From an uncultured cyanobacterium (GTDB lineage Bacteria; Cyanobacteriota; Cyanobacteriia; PCC-9006; JAAUQQ01), in assembly GCA_963718615.1 (NCBI GenBank), contig OY970368.1:1376001-1440000 (forward strand): a DNA stretch of 64,000 bases, read 5' to 3'. This document shows positions 9,465 to 57,293 of this stretch, piece by piece (positions within the stretch are counted from its first letter, which is position 1; the number at the start of each line of letters is the position of its first letter). The translations under genes were made by a program, and so were the position numbers. The notes beneath the pieces were generated by a model that made no database searches, was not told the origin of the DNA, and saw only the letters and a program-made list of their open reading frames with translations.

Positions 9465-9471
9465 GCTCCGG

Positions 9472-11089: not shown

Positions 11090-11416
11090 ATGATTACAAC
11101 CACGACGGATTTTCTTCAGGGCTACGAAATCACGCAGTATCTCGGCCCGGTGACGGCAGAAGTTGTCTATGGAACCAATGCTCTGCGTGATTTTATGGCA
11201 GGGCTGCGGGATGTCTTTGGCGGGCGCACCGGTAGCTATGAACGGGTATTTGAAAAGGGCCAGCAGGAGGCCATTCGAGAGCTGGAGGATCGCGCCCAGC
11301 GGCTGGGGGCCAATGCGGTGGTTGGTATGCGATTGAATACGGATTCGATCAATATCGACAATGAAGGCGTTTTGTTTCTGATTACCGCCACGGGCACCGC
11401 TGTCACGTTACGCTAA
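11090..11416 (+). CDS. YbjQ/UPF0145 family protein
   Basis: ITTTT..G.EI..YLG.V, RDFMAGLRDVFGGRTGSYE, LGANAVVG, ATGTAV. Confidence 0.92.
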   Translation: MITTTTDFLQGYEITQYLGPVTAEVVYGTNALRDFMAGLRDVFGGRTGSYERVFEKGQQEAIRELEDRAQRLGANAVVGMRLNTDSINIDNEGVLFLITATGTAVTLR

Positions 11417-11434
11417 GCCAATGGGAGACAACTG

Positions 11435-13782: not shown

Positions 13783-13807
13783 GGTTGTAGCGTTTAAGTT
13801 GTAGCGT

Positions 13808-27945: not shown

Positions 27946-28494
27946 ATGGAGGAGCTTCAAACTTTAATCCTGCCCTTTCGAACCATGGTTTTGCAGGGGT
28001 TATTGCTGATCGTGGCGACGGCGATCGAAGCCGCTGTGATTCACAATCGCTTGGGCATTAGCAAACGAGGCAGTGTGCAGTATGCCTTGGCCCTCAACCT
28101 CACCTCCACCGTCATTGGCTGGACCTTATTGTTTACCTTAGAACCCTTTTTGTCGGAGCCTTGGCGACTCAATCTGATGAGCTATGTGTTGTTCAATCGC
28201 AGCTTTGGCCCTGTCTCTTCTGCTTCAACCCTGATGGTGGTGGGATTATTTGGGATGTATCTCGGGACTTTCTTGATTGAAACCCAGGCCATGAATATTT
28301 TGCTGCGAATCTGGGCTCCCCCCATTCCTCGGCAGGAATATGATACCTCTGAGGTGAAATATAACCGCACCCAGCGCTATAAAAGCTCCTGGACTGCCCG
28401 CTTTCGGTCTAATGCACTGCTGCGGGCCAATGCCATCAGCTATACCGCCATTTTGGTACTGCTATTCGTGCTCCAGCGCGCTCGCTTTATCTAG
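27946..28494 (+). CDS. fraC: Filament integrity protein FraC
   Basis: LPFRTM..Q.LLLIVA.AIEA, SVQYA..LNL.ST..GW; three to four TM segments; first gene of a fraCDE-like trio. Confidence 0.8.
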   Translation: MEELQTLILPFRTMVLQGLLLIVATAIEAAVIHNRLGISKRGSVQYALALNLTSTVIGWTLLFTLEPFLSEPWRLNLMSYVLFNRSFGPVSSASTLMVVGLFGMYLGTFLIETQAMNILLRIWAPPIPRQEYDTSEVKYNRTQRYKSSWTARFRSNALLRANAISYTAILVLLFVLQRARFI

Positions 28495-28564
28495 GACTCG
28501 CTTTCTCTAGGAATAGGGCAATGCCCTCTCTTCCCAGGACCCTTCTTCTAACCGATCCAAATCC

Positions 28565-29572
28565 ATGAAAGAGCTGGCTCAATCCTTCTGGAATCACTTC
28601 TGGACTTTTCTCGGCCCTCGTCAGTTTTATGCTTGGCAGAGTGCGCTGTGGCTGAGTGTTTTGGCCTGGGTGCTGTCGCGGATTACGCGATCGCCCGTCC
28701 AACTGGATGCCCCGATCACGGCCTACAGCATTCTGATTACGTTTAGCTGGATCTTTTTGATTATTGCCGTGGGCTGGTTCACCACCGAGTACCCGATCAA
28801 GATTTTTGGGCAGAACCTTGGGCCTTGGCTCACGGGGATCCTAGTGTGTCTGTTTTTATTTGACCGAGGAGAAGCGCCGCTGGTGCGTCCTGCGCTCTTG
28901 AGCTGGCCCTTGATTTCGACGGCGATCGCCGCCTTCCCCGATTTTGTCAAAGTCGATTCGGGCTTTACGGTGCCTCGGGGCCTGCAAACGCGGCAGCGCC
29001 TGGTTGTCCTACTGCTGGCTAATCTACTGCTGACAAGCTGGATTTTTTTGGGGTTGAGGATCCAAACCTGGTTTGAGCAATATCCGGGGTTACGGGGTGA
29101 GCGCTTTAATGAAAGCCTCGTAGTCATGGAGCCCTGGTCCTGGCAACCGGACTATCGTCGGGCAGACGCCATTGTGGAAGAAATGAGTAACCAGCTCGTC
29201 CAGGACACGACGGGGGTGACCGTGCCCGAGGTCGAACGCTGGCTAATGGAGCGTCGGGAAAATCCCTATCTCTTCCGTGATGCGGTCATGAACCAACTGG
29301 CCAAAAATAACAGTGACCGTCGCCTCGACCAGGAATTTTGGCAGCTCCGAACCCTAGTGAGTGAACCCGATGGAACCCAAATAGCTCCCTTGGCCCTAGG
29401 CAGTCGTGCCGAGTACCAGGTCACGCTACAAGCCATCTGGACCGGCCCCCACAGTCATCAAGATGGCCATGGGCGGCAGCTTCAGTGCCAAATCAACGTG
29501 GCCAGTAGCAATCGGACCCAGGTGGTGTGCGATCGCGACATCAAAGCCAAGCAAACCGAATCCCAAACATAG
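28565..29572 (+). CDS. fraD: Septal junction protein FraD (DUF5357)
   Basis: P.Q..AWQ, LGPWLTG, WPLIS..IA, Q.W..QYP.L; five TM segments plus a periplasmic domain with PEVERWL and a terminal Cys pair. Confidence 0.82.
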   Translation: MKELAQSFWNHFWTFLGPRQFYAWQSALWLSVLAWVLSRITRSPVQLDAPITAYSILITFSWIFLIIAVGWFTTEYPIKIFGQNLGPWLTGILVCLFLFDRGEAPLVRPALLSWPLISTAIAAFPDFVKVDSGFTVPRGLQTRQRLVVLLLANLLLTSWIFLGLRIQTWFEQYPGLRGERFNESLVVMEPWSWQPDYRRADAIVEEMSNQLVQDTTGVTVPEVERWLMERRENPYLFRDAVMNQLAKNNSDRRLDQEFWQLRTLVSEPDGTQIAPLALGSRAEYQVTLQAIWTGPHSHQDGHGRQLQCQINVASSNRTQVVCDRDIKAKQTESQT

Positions 29573-29598
29573 GCATCAGGCAAAGACGGAGGAGAGAA

Positions 29599-30372
29599 AT
29601 GAATCTTCAACGGGTGTGGGTGATTGCAGCCAATGTTTTTCGGGAGGTCATTCGCGATCGCGTCCTTTACCTCGTCGGTCTATTTGCCCTGGTGCTGCTG
29701 CTGGCCAGTCGCCTCCTGCCGGAAATTTCCAGCGTAGCCGCAGAGAAAACCTTCACAGATTTGGGACTAGCGGCCATCGGCGTCTTTGGCCTCGTGGTGA
29801 CGCTCTTCGTTGCACCAGGCTTGGTGAATAAGGAAATCGACAAACGGACGGTCTTTATCCTGATTTCAAAACCGCTGAGCCGGGCTGAACTAATTCTCGG
29901 CAAGCATTTGGGCCTTTGTGGGGTGCTCGCTGTCTTGCTGGCGGCGATGGCAGGGATCTACATTCTGCTGCTCCAAAGCTATCAGATTGCCTTTCTGCCG
30001 GTGCCCCTAGCCCTGAGCTTGGTTTATTTACTGCTGGAACTTGCCTTACTCACCGCCTTTGCCCTGCTCTTTGGTAGTGCCACTAGCTCGCTGCTGGCTA
30101 CGCTCCTTACCTTGGCGATTTATTTGACCGGCCACCTCAGCCCAGACTTGGTCCAGCTTGCCAAGCTGACAGAGAACCCCAACCTTCAGCGAGTAGTTCG
30201 CAGTCTCTATTTGGTGCTCCCCGATTTGTCTCGCTTTAACTTTCGCAATGAGTCAGTTTATGGCATTCTCCCCAGTGCGAATGGGTTAATCACAACCGCA
30301 CTGTATGGCATTGCCTATACGTTTGTTTTACTGGTCTTAACCAGCTTTATTTTTTCTAAGAGAGAATTTTAA
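29599..30372 (+). CDS. fraE: ABC transporter permease FraE
   Basis: IAANVFREVIRDR.LY, KEIDKRT..LISKP.SR..LILGKHLG, F.KREF; follows fraC-fraD. Confidence 0.82.
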   Translation: MNLQRVWVIAANVFREVIRDRVLYLVGLFALVLLLASRLLPEISSVAAEKTFTDLGLAAIGVFGLVVTLFVAPGLVNKEIDKRTVFILISKPLSRAELILGKHLGLCGVLAVLLAAMAGIYILLLQSYQIAFLPVPLALSLVYLLLELALLTAFALLFGSATSSLLATLLTLAIYLTGHLSPDLVQLAKLTENPNLQRVVRSLYLVLPDLSRFNFRNESVYGILPSANGLITTALYGIAYTFVLLVLTSFIFSKREF

Positions 30373-30860: not shown

Positions 30861-31946
30861 GTGTCTTTAACTTCCTGCAAGCCGATGAGATCCTGGATGC
30901 CGCTCTTATTGCGAAGTCGGGTGTTTCTTGCGGTGGCTCTCCCCCTAGCCGCTGTGGCCACACCATTCCGGTTGCAAGCTGCTGATGTAGTGAATACCGC
31001 CTCAGGTATTGCTAATGGCTTTACGCAACCAACCAATTCCAACCCTGCAGTCATCTCTGCGGGACAGCCCGATTTGGAGCTGATTAAAACGGGCGATCGC
31101 TCTGCCGCAGAACCCGGTGATACGGTGGTTTACCGCCTGCTCTTTGCAAATCGAGGCGATGCATCCGCGACCTTGGCGAATGTTCAAGACACGCTACCGC
31201 GTGGACTCAATCTGAAGTCCAATTCTCTCAAGGCGGTGCTCACCAGTGCCTTAGGGAAAACAGCGATTGATATTGGTCCCGTCAATACGGCGGGTCGTGC
31301 CTTCTCGGCCAGCTTAAACAATGGCGCTGGGGTCATTATCCAGCCGGGTGATGTTTTGGATGTCGTCTATGCGGCGGAAGTCACTCCAGATGCGGTTCGA
31401 GGCAATGGACGGAACCTAGCCGTGGGTCAGTTGTTGAGCGGAACTTTAACCAATACGGCAGTTCACCGTCTACGGATTCGCCCCGGCATTCTCTCCGATT
31501 GCGGCACGATTTTGGGTCGCGTGTTTGTAGACACCAACATGAATGGATTCCATGAACCCGGTGAGCCCGGTGTGCCCTACGCAGTGGTGTTCATGGATGA
31601 CGGCAACCGCATCACCACCGACGAAGAGGGTCTGTATTCCCTTGCCAAGGTCATCGGCGGCAGACGGGTTGGAACCATTGATCTCTCCAGCGTGCCGGGA
31701 TATGAAATTTCGCCGGAACCCAACTTTATTGACCGCAAGAGCGTTTCCCGCTGGGTGCAGCTCGCGCCGGGGACGACCCGCGTCATGAACTTTGGCCTCA
31801 AACCCTTGCCCGAGCCCGAGCCGGAACCTATTCCTGAACCGGAACCCATTATCCCTGCGCCCCTACCCGAGCCAGAACCCATTCCAGAGCCTGAGCCGGA
31901 ACCCGAGCCTACCCAAGAAGCTGCTCCCGTTCCTGCGTTGTTCTAG
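30861..31946 (+). CDS. Exported DUF11 (isopeptide-type Ig) + SdrD-B-like domain protein with PE-rich tail
   Basis: Signal peptide ending LQA; LIKTGDR.AAEPGDTVVY, QDTLP, GRNLA; GTILGRVFVD.N.NG....EPG; (PE)n; C-terminus APVPALF. True start may be ATG 30885 or 30897. Confidence 0.88.
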   Translation: MSLTSCKPMRSWMPLLLRSRVFLAVALPLAAVATPFRLQAADVVNTASGIANGFTQPTNSNPAVISAGQPDLELIKTGDRSAAEPGDTVVYRLLFANRGDASATLANVQDTLPRGLNLKSNSLKAVLTSALGKTAIDIGPVNTAGRAFSASLNNGAGVIIQPGDVLDVVYAAEVTPDAVRGNGRNLAVGQLLSGTLTNTAVHRLRIRPGILSDCGTILGRVFVDTNMNGFHEPGEPGVPYAVVFMDDGNRITTDEEGLYSLAKVIGGRRVGTIDLSSVPGYEISPEPNFIDRKSVSRWVQLAPGTTRVMNFGLKPLPEPEPEPIPEPEPIIPAPLPEPEPIPEPEPEPEPTQEAAPVPALF

Positions 31947-32020
31947 GACCGCACTCGGCGATCGCCCCTAATCTCCGACCGTCGAGTTTCGATGCTTTCG
32001 TTCAATCCCAGTTCCCCAGC

Positions 32021-35000
32021 GTGACGGATCTCGATCGCGCGGCCATTGCCAGAAGCACAAGAGTTATGAACAATTCGACGTTTCTCAGGTTACTCACAGA
32101 TTGGAATCGGCTCGCGGCGGGTCTAGCGAGCGCAGACAGCAACAGGGCTCAGGCGACCAACAGCGCCTGGGCAACCTTTGGGCTTGGTCTTGTGGCCGGG
32201 TTTGCAGGGGTCATCATGACGACGTTGCCGGTCCTCGCGGTCGAGCCTGCTCCGGCGGAATCCGCTAAAACGGCCCAGGCGACGGGTGGATCTTCCCCAG
32301 AGGGAACTTCCGATGATCCACTCTTCATTGAACCGGTCGAGCCCAGCGACCCGCTGCCCCCCCTCGAAGAGTCGTTTCCCCCTGCCAATCCGAGTCCGGA
32401 GAGCACCCCCCGCAATCCCACCCCCTCCCCCGTCGATGACAGCGAGCCCGTAGAAATCGACACCAGTTTGGACCAGGGGCCAGAAGCCAGCGAATTGCCT
32501 CGGGTGGAGTTTGCGGAGCTCGACAGCATTCAGGCGGATGGTCGGTCGATTCGGTTGGTCGAAGGCCAAGTCCTCAAAGCGGACGGCAGTTTGTTCACCG
32601 ATGATGTGGTGGTGACGCTGACCAGCGGCGCAGGCAAGTTTGTCGGCGACGATGCCGATGAAGAGCGGCCTGGTTTCCAAGTGGTTGCGAAGAACGGCAA
32701 GTTTGCGGCACGGCTGCGGGCACCGATTCAGGCCCAGCGCACGCGCATTCGGGCGGCGATCGACCCGGTGTGGGATCTAAAAATGCCCCTAGCTGATCTC
32801 CAGCGGGAAACCCAGGACCTAGTCCTGCCGACAACGCCCTACCAACCGCTGCGCCAGCCCCTCGTTTCTGAAACCTACACCGATCTAGAATTCACCACCT
32901 ATCTGCGGCCTTCGTTGGTTTCGGGTTCGTTGAATGTTCGGCTTGGCAAGGGGACGACGGATTTTTATGGGCCGTTCTCAGAATTTCTCAATCCCAGCGG
33001 CAGCGACGGCTATGAGTTTGATGTGGATGGCGGCCTGTTTGCCACTGGGGCCTTGGGCGAATGGTTATTTACTGGGGCTTTGGCGCTCGATCGCGGCCTC
33101 AACGATGATTGCAACGGCAGCCGCCTTTACCGGGATTACGACAACTGCGACCAGCTCTACCCTGTCTACGGGGACAGTTCAACGGTTGATTACCTCACCC
33201 CGTCCCAGGACAGCATCTACGCCCGTCTGGAGCGCAACTCGCTGATTCCAGGGGCGGACCCCGACTACATCATGTGGGGCGACTGGGGCACGAATGAATT
33301 TGCCCAACCCTCCCAGCTCTTTAGCGCTACGACGCGCAATCTGCACGGGGCCAAGCTCAACTATAACTTCGGCGATTTTCAATTCACCGGGGCCTACGCC
33401 ACTAATATTGACGGTTTCCGCCGAGACACGATTCAGCTCAACGGCACTAGCGGTCTTTACTTCTTCTCCCGCCGTTTGCTGGTTCCTGGTAGTGAAAACC
33501 TCTTTATCGAAACCGAAGAGATTAACCGCCCCGGCTTTGTGGTGGAGCGCAAAGATCTGCGTCGGGGCGCGGACTACGAAATTGATTACGATCGCGGTTC
33601 CATCACCTTCCGCCGCTCGGTTCTGGGTACGGAGTTTGATCCCTTTGGGACGACCCTGGTGCGTCGAGTCGTGGCCACGTACCAGTTTGAAGATGACGGT
33701 GATGCCAATAACGGTCTGTTTGGCGGACGTTTGCAGTACAACCTATCGCGGGAGCTGGGCAAGGAAAGCTGGATCGGTGCGACCTATCTGAATGAAGACC
33801 AGGGCGATCGCGACTTCCAACTGTTTGGCGCAGACTTCCTCGTGCCCCTGGGCACCGCCGGGAGCTTTATCGGGGAATATGCTCGCTCCTCCAACGGTGT
33901 TGATTTCCTCGGCGATGTGGATGGCTCGGCCTATCGACTAGAGGTGGAAGGTAAACCCACGGACTGGGTTCGAGCCCGAGCCTACTACCGCACAGCGGAA
34001 GACGGGTTTGCCAACGATGCCACCTTTAGCTTTGTGCCGGGACAAACCCGTTATGGGGCGCAGGCCACGGCCCAAGCCGGACCCAGCACCCAGGTCCAGG
34101 TCCAGGTGGACCGAGAAAACAATTTTGGTCGTTCGATCAACCTAAGAAATCGGTTTACCGGTGACCTGTTCGATGCCGATAGAAACCTGTTCTTTGACCC
34201 CAATCCGGACTTTGAAGCGGGCGATCGCGTCGACAACACCCTCACCACCGTCCGGGGCGGCATTATCCAAAAGCTAGGGGCGTCGGATTTGAGTTTGGAG
34301 TATGTCTATCGCGATCGCGACGACAATCGAGGCACCTCCCTCAACAGCACCAGCAACCAAATCGTCTCCAAGCTCCTGGTGCCGCTGAATGAAAAGTTTG
34401 CCTTCCGCGCTCAAAACGAACTCAACCTGGGCGACAGTGACGAGCTCTATCCCAACCGCACGACGCTGGGATTGGAGTGGGCCGCTTACCCCGGTGTGAA
34501 ATTGCGACTCGCGCACCAGTTCTTCGATGGTGGCATCCTCAGCAGTAGCGCCATCACTAGCCTCGATACCCTGGCAGATTATGCCCTCTCTGAAAACACC
34601 GACCTCTACAGTCGCTATTCAGTTTTGGGCACCAACAGCGGCATGCGGGGCTACGGCTCCGTCGGCTTAAACCACCGTTGGAAAGTATCACCGGGCTTCC
34701 GGATTAATGTCGGTTACGAGCGTATTTTTGATGATTTGTTCAACCGGACGGGGGCAGGCAACCGCTTTGAGACCGCCTACGCCGTGGGCCAAACCGGCTC
34801 GATTTTAGGCTTGAGCGAAGGCTCTTCCTACAGCGTCGGGTTTGATTACACGGGCTCCGAAACCTTCAAGGGCTCGGGTCGGTTTGAATACCGCGATACC
34901 AGTGATGGGGATCTGTTTCTGACCACCGTGAGCGGTGTGGGCAAGCTGTCGCCTTCGTTCTCGCTCCTGGGTCGTGTGGATGTGGCGGGTGCCTCCAACC

Positions 35001-35734
35001 AAACCCTGGTGGATCGCCTGGGTGATACGCTCAACGCCCGCATTGGTTTGGCCTACCGGAATCCCCTGGACGATCGCTTCAATGGTCTACTCCGCCTAGA
35101 ACACCGACAAAATGGGGACATTACGCCGAACGCCATCGGTACTGGCAGCGAATCCCGCGATACGGTCCTTGCCACCGAGCTGATTTATGCACCGGACTGG
35201 CGCTGGGAATTTTACGGCAAGTACGCCATGCGCTGGGCCGACACCAAGATTGGCGGGGGCTTCAGCAACGACAGCCGCATTTCCCTGGCTCAACTCCGGG
35301 CGCTCTACCGCTTTGATTACCGCTGGGATGTGGCCGCCGAGGCCCGCTGGATTAGTCAACCCACCGCCGACTTCGATGAATTGGGCTGGGCCGCCGAGTT
35401 GGGCTATTACCTCTCTCCCGATCTGCGGGTTTATCTCGGCTATAGCTTCGGCAGCGTCGATGACCGAGACTTCAGCGGCTATCGCTCTGAGGGGGGCATT
35501 TATGGGGGGCTAAACTTCAAGGTCAATCGTTTGTTTAATGACTTTGGGGTGCAGGTACCGGTGCCCAAGGAGCGTGAAGTTCAAGCGGAAGCGGCATTGC
35601 CTGCGGGGGCGATCGCAGAACCCTCTCCCTACGAAGCTCCCGTTGAAGCCGTAGAAGAATCCGAAGCTATGCCCACCCTTGAGGAAGCTGCACCTACCCA
35701 GACCGAGGAAGAAATTCCACGAGCCCTTTTTTAA
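32021..35734 (+). CDS. Large outer-membrane beta-barrel protein with periplasmic Ig-like (invasin-like ADG) domain
   Basis: Signal peptide, IQADGRS Ig-like domain, YPVYGDSS, G.DY.IDY.RG.I.F; long run of alternating amphipathic strands ending YGGLNFKV; acidic tail ending IPRALF. Confidence 0.85.
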   Translation: MTDLDRAAIARSTRVMNNSTFLRLLTDWNRLAAGLASADSNRAQATNSAWATFGLGLVAGFAGVIMTTLPVLAVEPAPAESAKTAQATGGSSPEGTSDDPLFIEPVEPSDPLPPLEESFPPANPSPESTPRNPTPSPVDDSEPVEIDTSLDQGPEASELPRVEFAELDSIQADGRSIRLVEGQVLKADGSLFTDDVVVTLTSGAGKFVGDDADEERPGFQVVAKNGKFAARLRAPIQAQRTRIRAAIDPVWDLKMPLADLQRETQDLVLPTTPYQPLRQPLVSETYTDLEFTTYLRPSLVSGSLNVRLGKGTTDFYGPFSEFLNPSGSDGYEFDVDGGLFATGALGEWLFTGALALDRGLNDDCNGSRLYRDYDNCDQLYPVYGDSSTVDYLTPSQDSIYARLERNSLIPGADPDYIMWGDWGTNEFAQPSQLFSATTRNLHGAKLNYNFGDFQFTGAYATNIDGFRRDTIQLNGTSGLYFFSRRLLVPGSENLFIETEEINRPGFVVERKDLRRGADYEIDYDRGSITFRRSVLGTEFDPFGTTLVRRVVATYQFEDDGDANNGLFGGRLQYNLSRELGKESWIGATYLNEDQGDRDFQLFGADFLVPLGTAGSFIGEYARSSNGVDFLGDVDGSAYRLEVEGKPTDWVRARAYYRTAEDGFANDATFSFVPGQTRYGAQATAQAGPSTQVQVQVDRENNFGRSINLRNRFTGDLFDADRNLFFDPNPDFEAGDRVDNTLTTVRGGIIQKLGASDLSLEYVYRDRDDNRGTSLNSTSNQIVSKLLVPLNEKFAFRAQNELNLGDSDELYPNRTTLGLEWAAYPGVKLRLAHQFFDGGILSSSAITSLDTLADYALSENTDLYSRYSVLGTNSGMRGYGSVGLNHRWKVSPGFRINVGYERIFDDLFNRTGAGNRFETAYAVGQTGSILGLSEGSSYSVGFDYTGSETFKGSGRFEYRDTSDGDLFLTTVSGVGKLSPSFSLLGRVDVAGASNQTLVDRLGDTLNARIGLAYRNPLDDRFNGLLRLEHRQNGDITPNAIGTGSESRDTVLATELIYAPDWRWEFYGKYAMRWADTKIGGGFSNDSRISLAQLRALYRFDYRWDVAAEARWISQPTADFDELGWAAELGYYLSPDLRVYLGYSFGSVDDRDFSGYRSEGGIYGGLNFKVNRLFNDFGVQVPVPKEREVQAEAALPAGAIAEPSPYEAPVEAVEESEAMPTLEEAAPTQTEEEIPRALF

Positions 35735-35826
35735 CGTCTCCCGCATCTGCCGGTTTCCTAGGGAGTCCAGCAGATGCATCCTTTTTTGCTGAAACTCTGT
35801 AATCGTGTGTGTCAGGACGTGAACCC

Positions 35827-38800
35827 ATGAGCCGACTGCGACCCCAACTCTTGCTAGATCTTTTCTCCTCCAATTCCAACCGATTGTCTGACTCGGGGCC
35901 ATCCGCTAAACGGAGGCGAAGTCGATGGCTGCAGATGGTTTTGTTGTTTGCGGGGTTGGGGGCGATCGCCCAAGCAAATCCCGCTCAAGCCGCTAGTTTT
36001 ACCTGGAGCAGTACTCCAGGCGCGGGCAACGATTGGGCAGCAGGCACTCTAGACGGTGGCCCCGCAAACAATCCCTTTCAAACGACACCTCAAAGTGGTG
36101 TCACCCTTCAGTTCAACTGGAACACATTTGACGGTGCCAACTTTGTTGCAGGACGTCCTAGCCTGGGTGAAGGCGTCATTGATGGTGGACTAACTTCCGG
36201 CAACTTGCTGGTTATTTTTGCTTCGACGGATGTTCCCAGCCGCGTTGAATTAGACGTTAACTTTACCAACGCAGCCGGGGATGTAGTCCCCGTTCGCAAC
36301 CTGCGATACACCCTAATTGATATTGACCGAGATAACTCCCGAGACTGGCAAGACGTCACTTCCACCTTCGGTCGGTTTGGGGGAACACCTGCCGCTCCAA
36401 ATAGTGGAGGCGCAATTCAACCTACGGTTGTTCCTGGATCCCAGGGGGAAACTGTCGAAGAAGTAACCGGTAATCAAACCGCGATCGGCTATACCGAGCC
36501 TGCTGCCGCCCGGACTTTCCGAGGGATTACAGACCCCTCTCCAGAAAATCTGGGGTTAAACGGTGGTGAAGACGATGAAGGCGTAGAAGCGGATAACTTT
36601 CGAGACGAGGGTAGTGTTACTCTCAATTATCCTGGTACCTTAATCGACTCCTTCCGAATTGTCTACGGCAACGGTGTTTCGAATGGTGCGCTGAACGGTT
36701 TGGGTTTTAATATTCCTTCGCTAGACCGACCTGCTGATGTGAATGATCCAAACCCGCTTTCTCCCACCAATCCGACTCCCCACGGCATCGGCGTTTTAGG
36801 CGATTTCAACTTTGAGCCTGCCATTATTGGTATTGCCAAAACAGCGAGTGATCCTGTTTTCCAACCAGATGGAAGCTTCCGCGTTACCTATACGATGCGG
36901 GTCACCAACACAGGCGAAGTTCCCCTCGACAACGCTGTCATCACAGAAGACGTTGTGCCGGTCTTTGGAGGTGCTGCCAACTTCAACTTTGTCGCTGGGA
37001 GTTTGACCGGAGCCTTAGGGGGAGAGACCTTCAACGGTAGTACAGATACAACCATTGCCCTAGCGGGTGGAACTTTAGCACCCAACGAGTCTAGAGATGT
37101 TTCGTTCCAGGTTGATATTCTGCCCGCTGCCGGACCGGGTCCCTTTGCAAACCAAGCCACAGTGGTCGCGGAACCCCAAGGCTTTCCCGGAATCCAGGTC
37201 ACAGACCGCTCCGCCAACGGCACCAATGTAGACGCGGACGTGGATGATCCCGATGACGGGACTCCGCTTCCTCCAACCTTTACCGCACCCAATGGCAATA
37301 CGGTCACACGGGGCACAACTCCCGACAATGACCCCAGTAACAACGACTCACCAACAGTTGTATCCCTAACTTTCCCGCCCCGAATTGGGGTGACAAAGCA
37401 GGTCACAAACGTTATCAACAATGGCGACGGCACCTTCGACGTCACCTATCGCCAGATTGTCTGTAACCGCAGTGGCGGAACCGTTGGGCTAACCAACGTA
37501 CAGCTCACGGAAAACCTAGACGACACATTCCGTCTGGGTCAGCCCAATGGCGTCACAGCCTATACCGTGCAGAGCGTCACCTCCCCAGCCGCAGTTGCAG
37601 GTGTCCCCAACTATCGACAGATCACCCCGAATGCTGGCTTTAATGGCGGTGCCCAAGGTGATCAGAATCTGCTGGGGGGGACAGATCCCCTGAATACTGA
37701 TGAATGTGGCGTCGTCGATTTTGTGGTTCGGGTAACGCCGGGACCCAATACAGGAGATAACGTTGGTGGTGATCCGCCCTACGAAGGACAAGTGACGGCA
37801 ACGGGCACGGGGCCGGGTCCTGCGAATCTTGTGGTGACGGACCTTTCTGACGATGTGACGTCCTTCCCCAACGCGCCCTTGCCCATTGCGGAACAACTCC
37901 CTCGGGACACTAGCAACCCAGCCAATGGAACAACCACCGATCCTGTCGATGGAAATGGCGTCCCCCAAAGCAACCCGATTCCAGCGAACGATCCCCAGGC
38001 AGCGACCAATGAAAACAACCGTACCCCGATCGCTTTCCTGCCGCCACAGATTGGGGTAACCAAACAGGTTACAAACGTTGCAGACAATGGCAACGGGACC
38101 TTCACCGTCACCTATCGTCATATTGTCTGTAATCTCGGCAATGAAGCCCTAAGCAATGTAACGGTAACGGAGCAGCAGGATCTGGCAACGGTATTCCGTC
38201 AAGGCCAAGCCAATGGTGTGACCAGCGCTCAGTTTGTTCCAGGTAGCTTGGTTGCACCAACAACAGCGCCCGCAGGATTTGAAACCGGATTTACGCCACT
38301 AGCCCCAACCGCTGGGTTTAACGGCACCGCAGGAAGTCTCCAACTGGCGACGGTGGCCAATTTACCCGTAGGTGGCTGCGGAATTGTGGATTATCAAGTG
38401 CTGGTTAATCCCACGGATCCCCTAGATCCTGCCGTCCAAAACCTGGGCGATGGAACATTAGGTAATCCTGCCAATGATGATCCTCCCTATGTGGCTCAGG
38501 TTGAGGCAACGGGAACGGGAGCAACCTCGGCTGTGCCGGTGGCCGACTTGTCTGATGACGTGTCGAATCTGACGGCTCCCCTGCCTCCTGCCCAGCAAAA
38601 GCCCCGAGATACGACCGGAAACTTCACCGCAACGGATGGGGCTAATGGCCCAGGTACCCCAGGTGGCCCTGAAAACGATCCGACGCCGGTCTCTTTGGTG
38701 GCCAATCCTCAAATTGGTTTAACCAAGCAAGTGGTTGACATTGTCAACAATGGGGATGGCAGCTTTGATGTGGTGTTTGAGTATGTGGTTCAGAACGTTG

Positions 38801-39720
38801 GCGGTACACCGCTGAATGGGGTGACGGTTGCTGATAACTATGATGATCAGTTCACGGCCAACAATGTAGGACCACTGGCCAATTACCAGGTCATTAGTGT
38901 CGTTCCTGTGTCCGCAACCGCCCCTGCGCCAATTGTGCCGGATCCGGCGGCAGTGGGGAGAACCCAAGGCAGTGGACTGATTAACCTTGCTACTGGGGGT
39001 GCAACGGTTTATCAACAGCCCCAAGGCGGTCAGCCGGGACAAAACGCAACCTTCCGGGTAACGGTTCGGGTTCTCAATCCCGATCCCAATGCCCTGTATG
39101 ATTCGAGTGCGATCGCCAACGGCAACTCCACGGTCAACGGACAACTGGTCACTGACTTGTCTGACGATATCCCCAGATTTGGTGCAGCGAATCCTGCGAA
39201 CGGAATCGGGGTTCCGGGGCCAGGGGTCACGCCCGGAAACCCCGCCGATCCGGCCAACACCATCACGCCGGTCGTCTTTGCCCAGGCTTCTCCGCTGCAA
39301 CTGTTTAAGCGGATTACCTCATTCACCCAGGCAGGTGTAACGACTCCGCTGACGAATTTGGTCAACAATCCTCCTGTGGCCACCTTTACGGGAGAAGTGG
39401 ACATTCGCCAGCTTGGAGATCTCCTGTCGGGAGATTCGGTGGAATACACGGTCTACTTCCTCAATGGCTCCACTCAAGCGCTAACGAATGTGGAAGTGTG
39501 CGACCCGCTGCCGTCACCCTTGACGATTGTGAATGGTAGTCTGACGGCATCCCAGGGAACGAGTACGTTTATTTCACCGCTCACGCCTCTTTCCTTAGCG
39601 AGCAATCCAGGACGTTCCTGTGGTGCTAGCTCCGGTTCCCAAGGTGCTGCGGTCTTTAATCTGGGTGATATTCCCGCGAACGGCAATGGCTTCGTAAGAT
39701 TTAACACTCAGATTCCTTAG
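35827..39720 (+). CDS. Large secreted adhesin-like protein: N-terminal head, four DUF11-like Ig repeats, C-terminal truncated DUF11 domain
   Basis: Signal peptide ending PAQA; repeats P.IG..K...N.DG.F.V.Y...V.N; last domain LFKRIT..GDSVEYTVYFLN..VCDPLP..GFVRFNTQIP-stop. Confidence 0.88.
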   Translation: MSRLRPQLLLDLFSSNSNRLSDSGPSAKRRRSRWLQMVLLFAGLGAIAQANPAQAASFTWSSTPGAGNDWAAGTLDGGPANNPFQTTPQSGVTLQFNWNTFDGANFVAGRPSLGEGVIDGGLTSGNLLVIFASTDVPSRVELDVNFTNAAGDVVPVRNLRYTLIDIDRDNSRDWQDVTSTFGRFGGTPAAPNSGGAIQPTVVPGSQGETVEEVTGNQTAIGYTEPAAARTFRGITDPSPENLGLNGGEDDEGVEADNFRDEGSVTLNYPGTLIDSFRIVYGNGVSNGALNGLGFNIPSLDRPADVNDPNPLSPTNPTPHGIGVLGDFNFEPAIIGIAKTASDPVFQPDGSFRVTYTMRVTNTGEVPLDNAVITEDVVPVFGGAANFNFVAGSLTGALGGETFNGSTDTTIALAGGTLAPNESRDVSFQVDILPAAGPGPFANQATVVAEPQGFPGIQVTDRSANGTNVDADVDDPDDGTPLPPTFTAPNGNTVTRGTTPDNDPSNNDSPTVVSLTFPPRIGVTKQVTNVINNGDGTFDVTYRQIVCNRSGGTVGLTNVQLTENLDDTFRLGQPNGVTAYTVQSVTSPAAVAGVPNYRQITPNAGFNGGAQGDQNLLGGTDPLNTDECGVVDFVVRVTPGPNTGDNVGGDPPYEGQVTATGTGPGPANLVVTDLSDDVTSFPNAPLPIAEQLPRDTSNPANGTTTDPVDGNGVPQSNPIPANDPQAATNENNRTPIAFLPPQIGVTKQVTNVADNGNGTFTVTYRHIVCNLGNEALSNVTVTEQQDLATVFRQGQANGVTSAQFVPGSLVAPTTAPAGFETGFTPLAPTAGFNGTAGSLQLATVANLPVGGCGIVDYQVLVNPTDPLDPAVQNLGDGTLGNPANDDPPYVAQVEATGTGATSAVPVADLSDDVSNLTAPLPPAQQKPRDTTGNFTATDGANGPGTPGGPENDPTPVSLVANPQIGLTKQVVDIVNNGDGSFDVVFEYVVQNVGGTPLNGVTVADNYDDQFTANNVGPLANYQVISVVPVSATAPAPIVPDPAAVGRTQGSGLINLATGGATVYQQPQGGQPGQNATFRVTVRVLNPDPNALYDSSAIANGNSTVNGQLVTDLSDDIPRFGAANPANGIGVPGPGVTPGNPADPANTITPVVFAQASPLQLFKRITSFTQAGVTTPLTNLVNNPPVATFTGEVDIRQLGDLLSGDSVEYTVYFLNGSTQALTNVEVCDPLPSPLTIVNGSLTASQGTSTFISPLTPLSLASNPGRSCGASSGSQGAAVFNLGDIPANGNGFVRFNTQIP

Positions 39721-39750
39721 TCACTAGCGCCTCCACTCATTACACCCATG

Positions 39751-39777
39751 ACGTCAAGCCTAGGCTTGACGTTTTTT
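39751..39777 (+). terminator. Intrinsic terminator after the adhesin operon
   Basis: Perfect palindrome acgtcaagcctaggcttgacgt followed by a T-run. Confidence 0.8.
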
Positions 39778-39930
39778 ATGGCAACACCATGACTGTCTCA
39801 GGGCTCTGATATAAGATAATTTTTCTGGGAAGAATAAATACGGAGTCTAGGACGAAAAACTAAATACCTGAAAGCCATTCTCTCTACCATGGCTCCCTTT
39901 AGTCCTTGAATGTTCTATAGGCAACTTTGC

Positions 39931-40983
39931 ATGACTAGCGATCGCCCTATTTTTATCGTGGGTATGCCTCGCTCAGGGACGACCCTGCTGCGCGCGATGC
40001 TCTGCGCTCATTCTCGAATCACGATTTCGCCGGAAAGCCATTTTTTGAACTATTGGTTGCGACAGTATCAGCATTTGGACTTGAGGGAGCGCGAAGGGTT
40101 TGACGAATTTTGGTCAGCGTTTAGCTCTAGTCAGCGGTTTTCCTATTTTGGTGTGGAGCCTGAAGGGCTGCGATCGCGTCTTCTAAGCACCTCTGACATT
40201 AGTTTTAAACACATCTTTCAGTCCCTCCTAGAAGCCTATGCCCAGCGGATGGATAAACCCCGTTGGGGCGAGAAAACTCCGATTCACCATGAACATTTGG
40301 ACACATTATTCGACTGGTTTCCCAATGCCCAAGTGATTTGGACTTTGCGGGATCCTAGAGCTACCACCGCCTCGCTCATGCAGGTCGACTGGGCTAGCCG
40401 CTATGCCTTTGTCAATGCAGAATGGTGGCACCGGAGCTTGCAAGGCTTTGAGCAACGCTGGGCGAAGGATCAACGGGTCTTTTTACTCAGATACGAAGCC
40501 TTAGTTCAGCATCCGCAAGCAACATTGCAATCCCTTTGCCATTTCCTGGGTGAAGGCTTTGAGCCGGGAATGGTTCAGGCTCGTCAGGAAAAAGACATGC
40601 CCATTGTCCATACTTCAGGATGGGCGAGAAAGCATTTTCAAGCGGCCCTCTCTCCCCTTCACCAAGAGGCAGTCAAAAAATGGCAAACGGAACTTTCTTC
40701 AACCCAGATTGCCATTGTTGAACATTGTGTTCGCTCCGTGATGATGCGTTATGGGTATCAACCCCAAACCCAGAAATTAGCCCCTTGGCAAACGGGATGG
40801 CTCAAGCTTTCTCGACGACAGTATCACTGGGATTTAAAACTTCAATCCCTGAAACAGGCTTGGGCTCAGACTTCGCTAGAGGAGAAATGGATTGGCACTT
40901 TGCCCAAGCCTTTACGTAAGCTTCAGCCCTATTCCCTTTCATTATCTGCCCAGGTTCCTCTAAAATCAAACCCAATTCACTAA
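39931..40983 (+). CDS. Sulfotransferase (Sulfotransfer_3-like)
   Basis: PIFIVGMPRSGTTLL (5'-PSB loop), WGEKTP, RDPRA...S, RYEALV..P. Confidence 0.92.
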   Translation: MTSDRPIFIVGMPRSGTTLLRAMLCAHSRITISPESHFLNYWLRQYQHLDLREREGFDEFWSAFSSSQRFSYFGVEPEGLRSRLLSTSDISFKHIFQSLLEAYAQRMDKPRWGEKTPIHHEHLDTLFDWFPNAQVIWTLRDPRATTASLMQVDWASRYAFVNAEWWHRSLQGFEQRWAKDQRVFLLRYEALVQHPQATLQSLCHFLGEGFEPGMVQARQEKDMPIVHTSGWARKHFQAALSPLHQEAVKKWQTELSSTQIAIVEHCVRSVMMRYGYQPQTQKLAPWQTGWLKLSRRQYHWDLKLQSLKQAWAQTSLEEKWIGTLPKPLRKLQPYSLSLSAQVPLKSNPIH

Positions 40984-41005
40984 GCTTTTTGCACCCCTTC
41001 ATGCC

Positions 41006-42178
41006 ATGACTCTTGATTCAGTCGGAGTACTCATTTGCGGATTTTATGGCTACTCCAATATGGGCGATGAAGCGATGCTGGCGGGGATGATTCGGCTGTT
41101 GCGGCAACACAATCCTGCCTTACCGCTAACGGTGTTGACCTTCAATCCCGAAGATACCCAGCGGCGTCATGGCATTGAAACTGTGGCGACTCATCCGCCT
41201 CGCCGTCGCTTAGAGGCATTCAAACGTTGGTTAAATCCCCTGGATCAGCAGGCGATAAAGGCGAATTCTGGCTTTGTACTAGGGGGCGGCGATTTATTGC
41301 GAGATGGAGCCGATCGCGAAGTGGCAGGATTCTGGCTGGCACCCCTGCAAAAAGCGCTTAAGCTCAAGCGTAAAACCGCGTTACTGGGGGTGAGCGTCGG
41401 TGAAATTTGGAAGCCTGAAACCCAACAATTGATTCCTCAGGTTTTGAATCAAGTGGATCTGATTGCGGTGAGAGATCAGCGCTCCAAAGATCGACTGCAA
41501 GCCCTGTCTGTAAATCAGCCGGTTTATGTGATGCCAGATTTGGCATTGGCAGCAGTTCATGCCTTTTCGCCTGCCCAGCCCAAGGCGAGGGGCGATCGCC
41601 CCCAAATTGGTATTTCAGTTCGCTGGATGAGCAATCGCGGCCAAACCGTCAACTATTCCTATGAGGATTTGCAGCGGGAAATTGCGGCGATCGCCGATTA
41701 CGCCGCCGATCGTTACAACGCCATCGTTCACTTCTTACCGTTCCAAGCCTTTGACAACTACTACAGCAACGACGATGACGACTACATCGCGATTCTAGAG
41801 ATTTTGAAATATAGCGATCGTTCCAGTCAGTTTCAGATCCATCGCTATTTGCCCTCGTTGGAAACGCTCATGGGAATTTTACAAACTCTGGATGTCGTCA
41901 TTGGTATGCGGCTACATTCGCTGATTTTGGCGGCGGGGTTGGGAGTTCCGGTGATTGCGGCGGAATATGACCCGAAGGTCGAAGGCTTTATGACGGAAAT
42001 TAGCCAGCGCGATCGCTCGATTCCGCTGAATGAGTTTCATCGCGATCGCATCATTCCGCTGCTGGATGACATCCTGGCAAAACCAGAAATTACGCGGCGA
42101 TCGCTGGCGGAGGGCTTGGCAAACTACCAGGCTAGGTGGGACACTCTCATGCCCCAATTAGACCGATTATTGGGCTAG
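41006..42178 (+). CDS. Polysaccharide pyruvyl transferase family protein (CsaB-like)
   Basis: GFYGYSNMGDEAML, LGGGDL, VRD..S, PDLA, IGMRLHSLI.A, YDPKV. Confidence 0.9.
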   Translation: MTLDSVGVLICGFYGYSNMGDEAMLAGMIRLLRQHNPALPLTVLTFNPEDTQRRHGIETVATHPPRRRLEAFKRWLNPLDQQAIKANSGFVLGGGDLLRDGADREVAGFWLAPLQKALKLKRKTALLGVSVGEIWKPETQQLIPQVLNQVDLIAVRDQRSKDRLQALSVNQPVYVMPDLALAAVHAFSPAQPKARGDRPQIGISVRWMSNRGQTVNYSYEDLQREIAAIADYAADRYNAIVHFLPFQAFDNYYSNDDDDYIAILEILKYSDRSSQFQIHRYLPSLETLMGILQTLDVVIGMRLHSLILAAGLGVPVIAAEYDPKVEGFMTEISQRDRSIPLNEFHRDRIIPLLDDILAKPEITRRSLAEGLANYQARWDTLMPQLDRLLG

Positions 42179-42179
42179 A

Positions 42180-43406
42180 TCAACTGTTGGGTTGAGTGAT
42201 TGTGGTGCCAGGTAGCAGTGCCGGTGCGGGTTGAAGTAGTGCTTGATAGGCCTGACGATGAGCCGCTGCAATTCGAGGCAGAGAGAGCTGGCGTTGTAGC
42301 TGCAAAATCTTGGGATCGGGCTGGTCGGTGATGCGCTTGAGGCTGGTTGTAATCCCTGCGGCTAGGGCCTCGGCACTGTAATCCTCGAAGGTTTGAATAG
42401 CATCAGAAACCATAGCATTGAATTCCTGAATTTGGGGCAGATTAAAGGCCAAAATCGGTCGCCCAATGGAAATCCAAGTGGCCAAGGAACCCGAGGCCGA
42501 AGCAATTTGGAATGGACAAACGGCAAGATCGCTAGCGGCCAAGTGCAGTTCTAAATCGGACTCGGAGAGATAGCCGGTGGTGGTGACGCGATCGCCCAAA
42601 TTCAACCGCTCGATTTGCGCGTTTAACTCTCGCTCAAACGCATCCTGTCCCGGTGCCATCCCCCCTGCGAATACAACATCAACAGAAGCGGGCAGGTGAC
42701 TCAGCGCGTCGAGGAGTAGCTGGTGTCCTTTACTCCGAAAGATAAAGCCCTGGAGGGTGACGACTTGGCGATCGCAAGACCATCCCAGTTTTGCCTTAGC
42801 CTCCTTGAGGGATGCAATGGCAGACCGTTTTTCCACGAAGTGGGGGATGATCTGGAGTCGAGAGGCCTGACGAAAATGCTGGAGGCGTTCAGCTTCAATG
42901 CCGTTGGAGACCAAGGGCATCGCCACATTGCCCAACAACCAACGCATAATCGTTTTATCCGCGAGATGGTTTTCCCAAAGCCACCGCATTGTGCTCCAGA
43001 TCGCTAAAGATTTACCGTTGGAATAACCCCGTAGTCGCTTATTTTCGTAGCCCCAAGCCATCCGCACATCGTAGCTGGGATAAATGTAGTCATAAATGTC
43101 ATGCAGCGTTACGCAGAGAGTACCCCGAAATTTGCGCCGAACTTTGCTCAAAAGTCTCAGCTTTTGCCAACCGGGTAGCCCCAAATATTTGCTGTACTGT
43201 ATGTGCAAAATGTCGCAGTCGCTTAAGGTCCGCAGCGCTTGCTGAAGCGGACGTCCCAGACTATGCGGCTCTGTGATCACAACCTCTGCTTCCGCTACGG
43301 TCACACCGGAAAAGGTTGCGATCGCCTGGGAAAGCCGTTTGCCATATCGAGCAACACCACTTTCATGGGCTTGTTGAGCGGTTAGGTGCAAATATCCAAT
43401 CTTCAT
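42180..43406 (-). CDS. GT-B glycosyltransferase (family 4-like)
   Basis: SGVARY, TLHD, IIPH, GFIFRSKG, ASDLAVCPF..ASASGSL. Confidence 0.85.
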   Translation of the reverse strand: MKIGYLHLTAQQAHESGVARYGKRLSQAIATFSGVTVAEAEVVITEPHSLGRPLQQALRTLSDCDILHIQYSKYLGLPGWQKLRLLSKVRRKFRGTLCVTLHDIYDYIYPSYDVRMAWGYENKRLRGYSNGKSLAIWSTMRWLWENHLADKTIMRWLLGNVAMPLVSNGIEAERLQHFRQASRLQIIPHFVEKRSAIASLKEAKAKLGWSCDRQVVTLQGFIFRSKGHQLLLDALSHLPASVDVVFAGGMAPGQDAFERELNAQIERLNLGDRVTTTGYLSESDLELHLAASDLAVCPFQIASASGSLATWISIGRPILAFNLPQIQEFNAMVSDAIQTFEDYSAEALAAGITTSLKRITDQPDPKILQLQRQLSLPRIAAAHRQAYQALLQPAPALLPGTTITQPNS

Positions 43407-56348: not shown

Positions 56349-57293
56349 CTAAAGATTTTTGATGGGTTCGGTAGCATTGAAATAACGATAGTCTAAGTAC
56401 CGATGACCATCGCTAGTGTCATAGAGCATGTCAATAAATCGATGGTTCCAGAGAATATTCTGCACCGCGTAGACATAGCGGGCATGGATCGGTTGCAAAA
56501 TGGTTTCGTCGAGACCGCTTAAAGACACCAAAATCGTACTGCGCATTTGCTGAAGTGAATCGGAAGTTGCCCCGTGGAGAGGACTCTCGGCGTCGATGGT
56601 GTGCATCACGGTCCAGCCTAGGCTAAACCGAGGGGTTTCATTCCGCATGAGTTTGAGACTGTAGAACCGGCGCAGATGCTGGCCTTCCAAGGAAATTTCG
56701 TCACGCAATAGAAAAACCTTGAGCTGGGCTTCCAAAATTTGGTTGTGGCGCTGGTTGGCAATGCGGAAGACCAGCGTGGGTTGACCATTGTAGGGTTCAA
56801 CCACGGCGACAGTGCTAAACATCACCCGAGCCCGAGAGCGCGAGAAGCGAGCAAAGGCCAATCCTGTAATCACCGCGATACTAATAATACTAACCATGGC
56901 TTCGATCGCCACGATCCCATTGGTATAAAGCGTATTGGGATACATCGCGCCATAGCCAATTGATCCTAGAGTCTGAACGCTAAAAAAGAAGGCGTCGGCA
57001 AAGTTTCCGGGCTTGGCATTTTCAATGCCGCCGGGGTCCAGCAAATAGGCCAGGGCAAACAGCGTATTGACCAAACCATAGCCCAAGGTCAACAGCAAAA
57101 AGAACAGCCACCAGGGTAGGGTCGAAAACAGATGATAGGGCTCTCGCCAATGGTTATACCAGCGATCGAGACCGACGATTTCAAACTGACCCTCTTCAAC
57201 GCGCAAATGCACAATGGGAGGGCGGGATAGCTGAGTCTTAAGGCGATGGATAAGGCGCTGGACAGAGTGCCGAACGGCGCGGAACAGCAGCAT
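56349..57293 (-). CDS. Inward-rectifier K+ channel (KirBac family)
   Basis: DAFFFSVQTLGSIGYG pore helix/filter, GLAFARFS, FRIANQR, WTVMH.ID..SPL.G, SGLDET. Confidence 0.92.
   Translation of the reverse strand: MLLFRAVRHSVQRLIHRLKTQLSRPPIVHLRVEEGQFEIVGLDRWYNHWREPYHLFSTLPWWLFFLLLTLGYGLVNTLFALAYLLDPGGIENAKPGNFADAFFFSVQTLGSIGYGAMYPNTLYTNGIVAIEAMVSIISIAVITGLAFARFSRSRARVMFSTVAVVEPYNGQPTLVFRIANQRHNQILEAQLKVFLLRDEISLEGQHLRRFYSLKLMRNETPRFSLGWTVMHTIDAESPLHGATSDSLQQMRSTILVSLSGLDETILQPIHARYVYAVQNILWNHRFIDMLYDTSDGHRYLDYRYFNATEPIKNL

Follow-up and report, generated by a model that had tools for sequence, protein, structure and literature searches.

To our knowledge, covalently linked pili are regarded as a Gram-positive, sortase-dependent trait, and the pili of diderm bacteria are thought to be assembled by chaperone-aided, non-covalent strand complementation. 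In chaperone-usher pili (FimH-FimG-FimF-FimA-FimI, with FimC and FimD), the incomplete immunoglobulin (Ig)-like fold of a subunit is made whole by the following subunit’s N-terminal extension; the tip adhesin carries an acceptor and no donor, a terminator or anchor subunit ends the fiber, and an outer-membrane barrel is encoded in the operon. The same arrangement can be recognized in the predicted products of a three-gene operon found in a 64,000-nucleotide (nt) stretch of DNA, hereafter the window, from an uncultured cyanobacterium (assembly GCA_963718615.1, contig OY970368.1, positions 1,376,001 to 1,440,000). Covalent forms of strand donation have been described elsewhere. For BsaA of Clostridium perfringens, a TasA family protein, the part of the preprint available to us presents a “donor-strand exchange and lock” by a spontaneous intermolecular isopeptide bond, backed by mutants; its N-terminal donor strand carries the Asn and its acceptor carries Lys and a catalytic acid, the same division as that proposed here (PMC11580942). 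The archaeal thread protein Saci_0406, in the accessible sections of its report, combines donor-strand complementation with proposed intermolecular isopeptide bonds and no sortase (PMC9715654). In the portion consulted of the CLIPPER survey, the CLIPPER domain 9IFR has nine strands and a Lys-Asn bond (PMC12617251); the residue numbers of the two led us to assign the Lys to strand 1 and the Asn to the penultimate strand. The balance of the evidence favors reading the cyanobacterial operon as the minimal three-gene form of a conserved system for assembling surface fibers or adhesins, in which a donor completes the adhesin, an isopeptide bond probably locks the joint, and a barrel serves as pore and socket.

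Analysis of the open reading frames (ORFs) and of the hairpin that follows them (Table 1) confirmed that the three genes are co-oriented and closed by one strong terminator-like hairpin, as the preliminary description of this DNA had stated. In gene order, the products are referred to here as the anchor, the barrel protein and the adhesin, and all three are predicted to be exported by Sec-type signal peptides. Pfam analysis assigned DUF11 and a sub-threshold SdrD_B match to the anchor, DUF7507 and DUF11 to the adhesin, and only a weak DUF2490 match to the barrel protein, and NCBIfam contained no specific model for any component of the system.

The adhesin has a signal peptide, then an N-terminal region that matches no family, a stalk of DUF7507/DUF11 modules and a C-terminal domain that we term the acceptor. 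Its Pfam DUF11 score of 31.9 bits (curated cutoff 24.6) came from the internal modules, and TIGR01451 was the only match in the last domain (residues 1207–1247). This domain contains K1167 in QLFKRIT (AAG, 39307–39309) and D1232 in EVCDPLP (GAC, 39502–39504), and the chain then ends in ...GFVRFNTQIP, followed by TAG, before any Asn strand, which leaves the isopeptide triad incomplete within one domain. These codons and this end, together with the codon of N45 given below, proved to be exactly as first described. The N-terminal parts of the adhesins are unrelated among homologs, and one conserved last domain is common to all. When acceptor position 1 is set at adhesin residue 1155 (K13 = K1167, C77 = C1231, D78 = D1232), the conserved motifs follow in the order L-x-L-V-K-R-I-T, G-D-x-x-E-Y-T-I-Y, C-D-x-x-P and G-F-(I/V)-R-F-R-x-x-V-x, and then a stop codon.

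The truncated end is a constant property of this domain. All 36 ORFs that the acceptor profile matched to the domain end stop at most three residues from that end, as do 16 of the 18 shaft-type acceptor domains found in the longer loci described below, the other two stopping within four residues. The Asp is present in 36/36 acceptors and the Lys is aligned in 33/36; the three sequences without an aligned Lys are the most distant ones, in which the profile did not cover the first strand, and by eye they read ...L-V-K-S-V. C77 and D78 are invariant in the acceptor alignment, and K13 and R14 occur in at least 90% of its sequences. When 1.84 billion representative proteins were searched, whole-domain matches were located at protein C-termini; giant DUF11-repeat proteins matched the acceptor core only, with three internal matches (P0030, P0051 and P0082) reaching query position 141 or beyond. 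In hhalign, D78 of the acceptor was aligned on the catalytic Asp of the anchor’s complete DUF11 domain with a probability of 94.9%. AlphaFold2 (AF2) predicted seven strands for the acceptor domain alone, with a predicted local distance difference test (pLDDT) score of 80.5. A PDB sequence search with the acceptor profile returned nothing useful, and Foldseek with the acceptor model gave no match at E ≤ 0.001. The C-termini, ending in ...RFNTQIP or ...RFRVKV(K/N), contain no LPXTG motif and no hydrophobic tail.

Two other features of the adhesin were observed. C1231 (39499–39501), immediately before the Asp at the catalytic position, is invariant among cyanophycean sequences and present in 33/36 acceptors overall, and a second Cys lies in the next loop of the acceptor (about 39634–39636) in most homologs. 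These two residues may form a disulfide, which would imply that the domain folds in the periplasm. The n-region of the adhesin signal peptide (window 35809–36015) has ...KRRRSRWLQ ahead of the hydrophobic core.

In the anchor, a signal peptide and an N-terminal donor of two strands come first, then a complete DUF11/CLIPPER domain and an SdrD_B domain, and finally a Pro/Glu-rich linker with a ...PALF tail. Pfam placed DUF11 at residues 71–182 (E value, 1.8e-08; 35.2 bits, cutoff 24.6) and SdrD_B, below the cutoff, at residues 220–286. The DUF11 domain of this small protein does have the complete K/D/N triad ascribed to it, with K76 (LIKTG), D110 (QDTLP) and N185 (GRNLA), and the best PDB sequence match of its profile was the CLIPPER structure 9ifr_A (E value, 0.001), with the K and D motifs aligned. 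The donor lies directly after the signal peptide. With mature residue 1 at precursor residue 41 (N5 = N45, S20 = S60, N21 = N61), donor strand 1 reads D-V-V-N45-T-A, where N45 in DVVNTAS is encoded by AAT (30993–30995), and donor strand 2 reads T-N-S60-N61, where the N61 codon is at 31041–31043. The preliminary description had made its reading depend on conservation of the VNTA strand in homologs, and mature residues N5, S20 and N21 were found to be invariant in 12/12 window-type anchors.

In anchors and shaft subunits together, the donor immediately follows the signal peptide and can be written as x-I-x-N-x-A-x-x-(Y/F) ... S-N-x-(V/T). All 21 shaft subunits have I-x-N-x-A-T-x-x-Y ... S-N-x-V just past the signal peptide (donor profile E ≤ 1.6e-14), and the shaft-donor profile also matched anchor N-termini, as well as the final strands of internal domains that are complete. 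The N-terminal motif occurs directly after the signal peptide in three subunit classes and extends into a second class of the phylum. The full two-strand donor was seen by eye after the signal peptide in none of the tip adhesins, and a short donor regular expression matched 4/32 of them, none at the mature N-terminus. When the donor was aligned, weakly, to the end of the anchor’s complete domain, N5 fell on N185. The predicted seven strands of the acceptor and two strands of the donor would together equal the nine-strand count of the CLIPPER fold.

Linkers rich in Pro and Glu, with P-(P/R)-A-L-(F/W) at their end, were noted in the window at 31803–31943 and 35590–35731, and in a second locus of the same genome (L008, described below) at about 10800–10976. 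Among the ORFs of at least 90 residues in this genome, the linker with this tail is found in the anchor and both barrels only, and the homologs of these proteins in the other genomes looked at end differently.

The adhesin–anchor complex was predicted from the last 149 residues of the adhesin (28-row alignment) and anchor residues 41–208 (12-row alignment). The interface score ipSAE was 0.85, 0.90 and 0.82 in three runs (median 0.85), and the best of three controls reached 0.30. The ipSAE mark is attained by 58/80 solved complexes and 2/110 mismatched pairs, counts that are only rough here because purpose-built alignments were used. The three runs shared at least 77% of contacts, and the pLDDT of the partner was at least 88. 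The interface on the anchor was its N-terminal extension (mature residues 2–12, 14 and 16–30, plus 60–61). In the model, donor strand 1 (anchor residues 42–52) and strand 2 (56–70) are placed against the strands of K1167 and D1232: strand 1 runs antiparallel to the C1231-D1232 strand, with D78 contacting mature residue 7, and strand 2 pairs with the K1167 strand, with K13 contacting mature residues 20, 21 and 23. Acceptor residue 11, on the Lys strand, contacts donor residue 7 across the core. The model fits a CnaA-type layout, in which the strand-1 Lys meets the penultimate-strand Asn across the sandwich, and it favors binding of the donor extension to the acceptor. The proposal that the small protein donates a strand to the adhesin is thus supported by conservation, by co-occurrence with the barrel and by a controlled complex prediction, with the modification that two strands appear to be donated.

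The distribution of the system was examined in 401 genomes of the phylum, and 32 further loci together with L008 provided 33 other loci for comparison. The barrel was found in 54/401 genomes and the acceptor domain in 52/401. All 52 genomes with the acceptor also hold the barrel, and the acceptor profile matched none of the 347 genomes that lack a barrel match; of the two barrel-only genomes, one has an in-frame stop in the barrel gene and the other is 87% complete. This survey bears out the expectation that the truncated domain and the barrel family would be found together. At least one acceptor ORF is present in all 33 other loci, and every homologous locus examined again has the truncated domain at a C-terminus and the N-x-A / S-N segment at an N-terminus, two features originally noticed in the window as an incomplete adhesin domain and an unpaired strand. 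In loci with intact gene calls, the order is either anchor-barrel-(accessory)-adhesin, as in the window, or shaft-p190-anchor-barrel-adhesin, and the distant loci L058, L066 and L067 depart from both. In most loci, the anchor gene shares a 4-nt overlap with the barrel gene. In L067 (G076:C335, ORF 3062–10378), from another class of the phylum, the two are fused into one protein of more than 2438 residues with the donor N-terminal and the barrel C-terminal, and in L058 a 1418-residue anchor-like gene product is encoded directly next to the barrel gene. Synteny, the 4-nt overlaps and the one natural fusion suggest that anchor and barrel are linked.

The three genes might instead be mere neighbors, the barrel being a porin or a TonB-dependent-type transporter and the two DUF11 proteins independent surface proteins. 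The names “TonB-dependent receptor” and “OprO/OprP family porin” given to barrel homologs point in this direction, as does the structural comparison by VIA-align, in which porins tie with ushers. We consider this very improbable in view of the gene order conserved across the other loci (33 examined, with L058, L066 and L067 deviating), the anchor–barrel overlap and fusion, the occurrence of barrel and acceptor together in 52 genomes against two barrel-only and no acceptor-only genomes, and the lack of a match to any TonB-dependent receptor or plug family of Pfam.

In many loci, the window not among them, an additional exported gene lies between the barrel and adhesin genes (L040:5753–8035, L043:11785–14118, L044:11260–13449, L039:6850–8490 and others). 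Its product contains a right-handed beta-helix (Beta_helix/NosD) and a Big_6-like domain, and 3 of the 4 proteins checked also have an OmpA-family peptidoglycan-binding domain.

In the barrel protein, a signal peptide and a Pro-rich spacer precede an Ig-like (Big_1/Invasin_D3-like) domain, which is followed by a giant beta-barrel and by an acidic tail that ends in ...RALF. AF2 analysis of residues 165–1195 with 32 aligned sequences gave a mean pLDDT of 74.8 and a predicted template modeling (pTM) score of 0.67, and the model has the Ig-like domain followed by 43 DSSP strands of at least seven residues. With this count, it would be among the largest single-chain barrels. Among the 32 aligned homologs, Ig domains of the Big_1/Invasin_D3 type precede the barrel in 13 to 17 (Invasin_D3 in 17, Big_1 in 13), DUF2490 was matched in 20, and IAT_beta in one, weakly (E value, 0.0086). 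No Usher, plug or TonB-dependent receptor family of Pfam was matched in the barrel or its aligned homologs. Foldseek with the barrel model returned SlpA, FimD, TonB-dependent transporters, LptD and SprA at a template modeling (TM) score of approximately 0.2, that is, generic large barrels only and none that would place it in a family. The PDB sequence search with the barrel profile gave nothing useful, and the look-alikes in the ESM Atlas were unnamed outer-membrane protein clusters only. There are 1606 barrel relatives at E ≤ 1e-20. The relatives of barrel and adhesin are all cyanobacterial, and their source names, which are uninformative, include “hypothetical,” “Ig-like domain-containing,” “TonB-dependent receptor” and “DUF11 domain-containing”; “OprO/OprP family porin” also appears for the barrel.

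The strict co-occurrence of acceptor and barrel, together with the position of the acceptor at the extreme C-terminus of otherwise unrelated adhesins, would also be expected if the domain were mainly an export or sorting signal for the barrel, comparable to the C-terminal domain of type IX secretion system (T9SS) substrates, and if the motif of the small protein were a repeat-boundary leftover that pairs with nothing. The T9SS translocon SprA is present in the Foldseek listing of the barrel model (ranks 13 and 15, TM 0.16). This explanation is improbable as a replacement for strand donation, because three subunit classes share the N-terminal motif immediately past the signal peptide and its conservation reaches a second class of the phylum, and because the complex prediction passed its controls with exactly the donor segment as interface. 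The sorting-signal and strand-donation readings are not mutually exclusive.

A paralogous five-gene locus, L008, was identified in the same genome (C1:2562000–2581999; ORFs 2635–5118, 5128–5700, 5773–7278, 7263–10979 and 10991–14671). In this order, it encodes an 827-residue DUF7925 protein, a 190-residue protein with a single DUF11-like domain, a 501-residue relative of the anchor (47% identity), a 1238-residue relative of the barrel (45% identity) and a 1226-residue adhesin. The 827-residue protein, the shaft subunit, has an N-terminal donor and a C-terminal acceptor, and with both ends on one chain it could polymerize into a shaft; the acceptor of the shaft subunit conserves K and E. The suggestion of a pilus pathway gains support from this donor-plus-acceptor subunit. 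Judging from its accession, Q8YS00 is presumably a protein of Nostoc PCC 7120. It is the seed of DUF7925, the shaft subunit family, which the consulted part of the CLIPPER survey defines (PMC12617251).

The 190-residue proteins (p190; L008:5128–5700 and homologs in 17 other loci) have a single truncated DUF11-like domain and carry no donor. Lys and the acidic residue are not retained as a pair: K is accompanied by Q in most Nostocales-type sequences, and those of L052 and L053 have D without K. The p190 proteins can be regarded as a natural negative control, sharing the truncated shape and not retaining Lys and Asp together. As a speculation, p190 proteins may act as non-covalent caps or as chaperone-like holders of free donor strands.

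Several observations weigh against the proposed joint and against the role given to the barrel. The lone acceptor domain is folded by AF2 with fair confidence, so the domain may be stable without a partner. The last strand of the window adhesin holds an Asn (N1299), where most homologs have Arg. The hhalign comparison of the donor with the Asn strand of the complete domain is weak (E value, 0.008; probability, 5%). VIA-align with the acceptor model gave only middling, tied matches, including many Gram-positive pilin domains; 9ifr_A scored Z 7.6 (root-mean-square deviation [rmsd] 3.1, 89 aligned residues), and the best row was a mu-adaptin domain at Z 9.5. The 9ifr register is not homologous, so these fold searches are unable to show which acceptor strands are missing. 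For the barrel, VIA-align gave the FimD usher a Z of 15.5 (rmsd 15.0; 363 residues aligned), level with ordinary porins at Z ~15; structure lends its proposed role no support, and it has no match to Pfam Usher. The genomes in the co-occurrence counts are kin, and the counts therefore overstate independence. Finally, a multimer prediction, the kind of check that the preliminary description had proposed, supported strand insertion (ipSAE 0.85 vs 0.30), and the low-error contacts that it lists for K1167 are S60, N61 and A63, not N45. With no K13-N5 contact in the list, either N45 or N61 could be the Asn that reacts. Homology points to N45, the residue named earlier, as the reacting Asn.

These contacts bear on whether the joint is covalent. 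Strand complementation could be real and non-covalent, with the conserved Lys and Asp having a structural function such as a buried salt bridge and no intermolecular isopeptide bond being formed. Great stability without covalent links is generally known for chaperone-usher pili and for type V pili. The N35A mutant of BsaA still gives oligomers resistant to sodium dodecyl sulfate, according to the part of the preprint available to us (PMC11580942), and the contacts listed for the present model do not set K1167 beside N45. We nevertheless judge a purely non-covalent joint to be unlikely, although it keeps real weight. The Asp (36/36) and the aligned Lys (33/36) of the acceptors stand where an isopeptide triad has them, the Asn residues of the donor do not vary, and p190 shares the truncated shape without keeping Lys and Asp together, which is the pattern expected if the pair serves chemistry and not the fold. 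A covalent lock is probable because the donor has an invariant Asn where the complete domain has the isopeptide Asn; the Lys-Asn bond itself is suggested by conserved residues alone.

Based on these results, the following mechanism is proposed. The last domain of the adhesin would be a CLIPPER/DUF11-type sandwich with strands 1–7 of nine, keeping the strand-1 Lys K1167 and the Asp D1232 at the catalytic position. The 361-residue anchor is predicted to supply both missing strands from its mature N-terminus (about residues 42–52 and 56–70), in a two-strand form of donor-strand complementation. Completion of the hydrophobic core would bring Lys, Asn and Asp together, and a self-catalyzed intermolecular Lys-Asn isopeptide bond would probably follow. 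The anchor’s own domains are complete and would accept no further subunit, so the anchor would act as the terminator, ending the chain and staying with the barrel. The barrel of about 40 strands would serve as export pore and socket, a role to which synteny, co-occurrence and the fusion point. Where five genes are present, the shaft subunit with donor and acceptor would repeat the joining step and polymerize between tip and anchor. Both split-domain strand donation and the existence of a dedicated, conserved system are supported by the sequence comparisons and by the model.

Compared with chaperone-usher pili, the cyanobacterial operon lacks a PapD-like chaperone gene, and its barrel does not belong to Pfam Usher (PF00577) and is far larger, with about 40 predicted strands. 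FimD has 24 strands. The predicted subunit fold is CLIPPER/CnaA-like, two strands and not one would be donated, and the Lys/Asp/Asn triad is split across the joint. A classical PapD_N chaperone gene and a Pfam Usher gene stand side by side elsewhere in the same genome (C1:407388–410449), so the cell also has an ordinary chaperone-usher system. They are the only PapD_N (C1:407388–407744) and Usher (C1:408845–410449) matches of the genome and lie about 1 Mb from the window. The statement that no sortase or chaperone is encoded nearby held in the Pfam analysis of the operon genes and their neighbors, and Pfam Sortase (PF04203) had no match anywhere in the 100%-complete 6.1-Mb genome. With no sortase gene in the genome and no LPXTG-type signal on the C-termini, the system differs from sortase-assembled pili. 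SpyTag/SpyCatcher likewise divides a domain into a body bearing Lys and the acid and a strand bearing the reacting residue, but it is an engineered split of CnaB2 with a Lys-Asp bond, whereas the split here would be natural, CnaA-like and made with two donated strands. With respect to type V secretion, the fused protein of L067, with the anchor N-terminal to the barrel, has a passenger-then-barrel order, and the only match to a family of this kind was the weak IAT_beta hit in one of the 32 barrels.

The likeness to BsaA is mechanistic only, as no TasA- or peptidase-related Pfam family was matched in the three proteins or their neighbors. In the accessible part of its description, BsaA has a TasA-like fold with an N-E-K triad and forms a homopolymer in a monoderm, with SipW and type IV pilus-linked secretion, and an outer membrane, a barrel and a separate tip and anchor are all absent (PMC11580942). 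The bond described for Saci_0406, in the sections seen, runs from the N-terminal alpha-amine (Asp24) to Asn57 in subunit n+2 and is not a Lys-Asn bond within a completed domain; the fold is another one, and this archaeal system has no barrel (PMC9715654). With respect to the CLIPPER/DUF11 family (PF01345), the anchor domain and the stalk modules of the adhesin are ordinary members, and the acceptor shares the core motif and the position of the catalytic Asp. The bonds reported in the portion of the CLIPPER survey consulted lie within one chain, whereas here the Asn strand and the final strand are on another protein (PMC12617251). Three further reports, each available in part, were set aside: the cyanobacterial tubular pilus is a different system with a 12-kDa pilin (PMC12397347), and the papers on a Litorilinea DUF11 “grappling hook” protein (bioRxiv 10.1101/2025.08.19.671072) and on a DUF11 signal peptide in Synechococcus PCC 11901 (PMC13297417) have no bearing on the mechanism.

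Searches of the literature brought up no account of such a system in cyanobacteria. Chaperone-usher pili, BsaA and archaeal threads already illustrate the principle, whereas this fold, this barrel family and the diderm setting were not found in print. We tentatively suggest, with the case for it not quite reaching an even balance, that the operon belongs to an undescribed class of diderm fibers distributed across cyanobacteria, with CLIPPER subunits, two-strand donation, a split Lys-Asn lock and a barrel of about 40 strands, and without chaperone or sortase. The window would then hold the minimal, tip-plus-anchor form of this class.

Table 1. Positions of the operon features in the window and the basis of each assignment
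Feature	Position	Strand	Basis
Anchor/terminator subunit, 361 aa	30861..31946	+	ORF; Pfam DUF11; homologs directly upstream of barrel in other loci
Putative donor segment, mature anchor N-terminus (residues 41–70)	30981..31070	+	Conservation, predicted interface, shaft-donor profile match
Complete DUF11/CLIPPER domain of anchor	31071..31484	+	Pfam, K76/D110/N185, best PDB match 9ifr_A
Outer-membrane barrel protein, 1237 aa	32021..35734	+	ORF; AF2 model; Pfam matches of homologs
Predicted transmembrane beta-barrel, protein residues ~283–1167	32867..35521	+	AF2 strand list, model residues 119–1003
Tip adhesin, 1303 aa	35809..39720	+	ORF; Pfam; motif reading
C-terminal acceptor domain, adhesin residues 1155–1303	39271..39717	+	Alignment, hhalign, AF2; domain ends at stop codon
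Terminator-like hairpin closing operon	39750..39773	+	10-bp stem, 5 GC pairs, T-rich tail

Upstream of the operon, positions 27946–30372 contain three genes (fraC-like, DUF5357 and ABC-2 permease) that look like a filament-integrity (fraCDE-type) cluster; by this resemblance, the organism would be filamentous. Past the terminator, at 39910–43406, genes for a sulfotransferase, a polysaccharide pyruvyl transferase and a group-1 glycosyltransferase were observed, and these enzymes could act on a surface glycan or on the adhesin. Elsewhere, the window encodes a ROCO-type protein (LRR-Roc-COR) at 48492–50876, an inward-rectifier-type K+ channel at 56349–57293 and, at 60480–63999, a chemotaxis-like set composed of a DUF4388 response regulator, CheW and a Cache-domain receptor.

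If the proposed reading is true, it would reveal an undescribed way for double-membraned bacteria to assemble surface fibers, adding both a pathway of assembly and a family of very large outer-membrane barrels to those known, and the system may merit recognition as a new diderm pilus class. It would explain many cyanobacterial proteins now named “DUF11 domain-containing” or “hypothetical,” including the 1606 barrel relatives, and would provide protein engineering with a natural, evolved set of orthogonal tag-and-catcher pairs. For the organisms themselves, it would suggest that filamentous cyanobacteria bear previously unknown adhesive fibers, with a likely bearing on mats, biofilms and symbioses.

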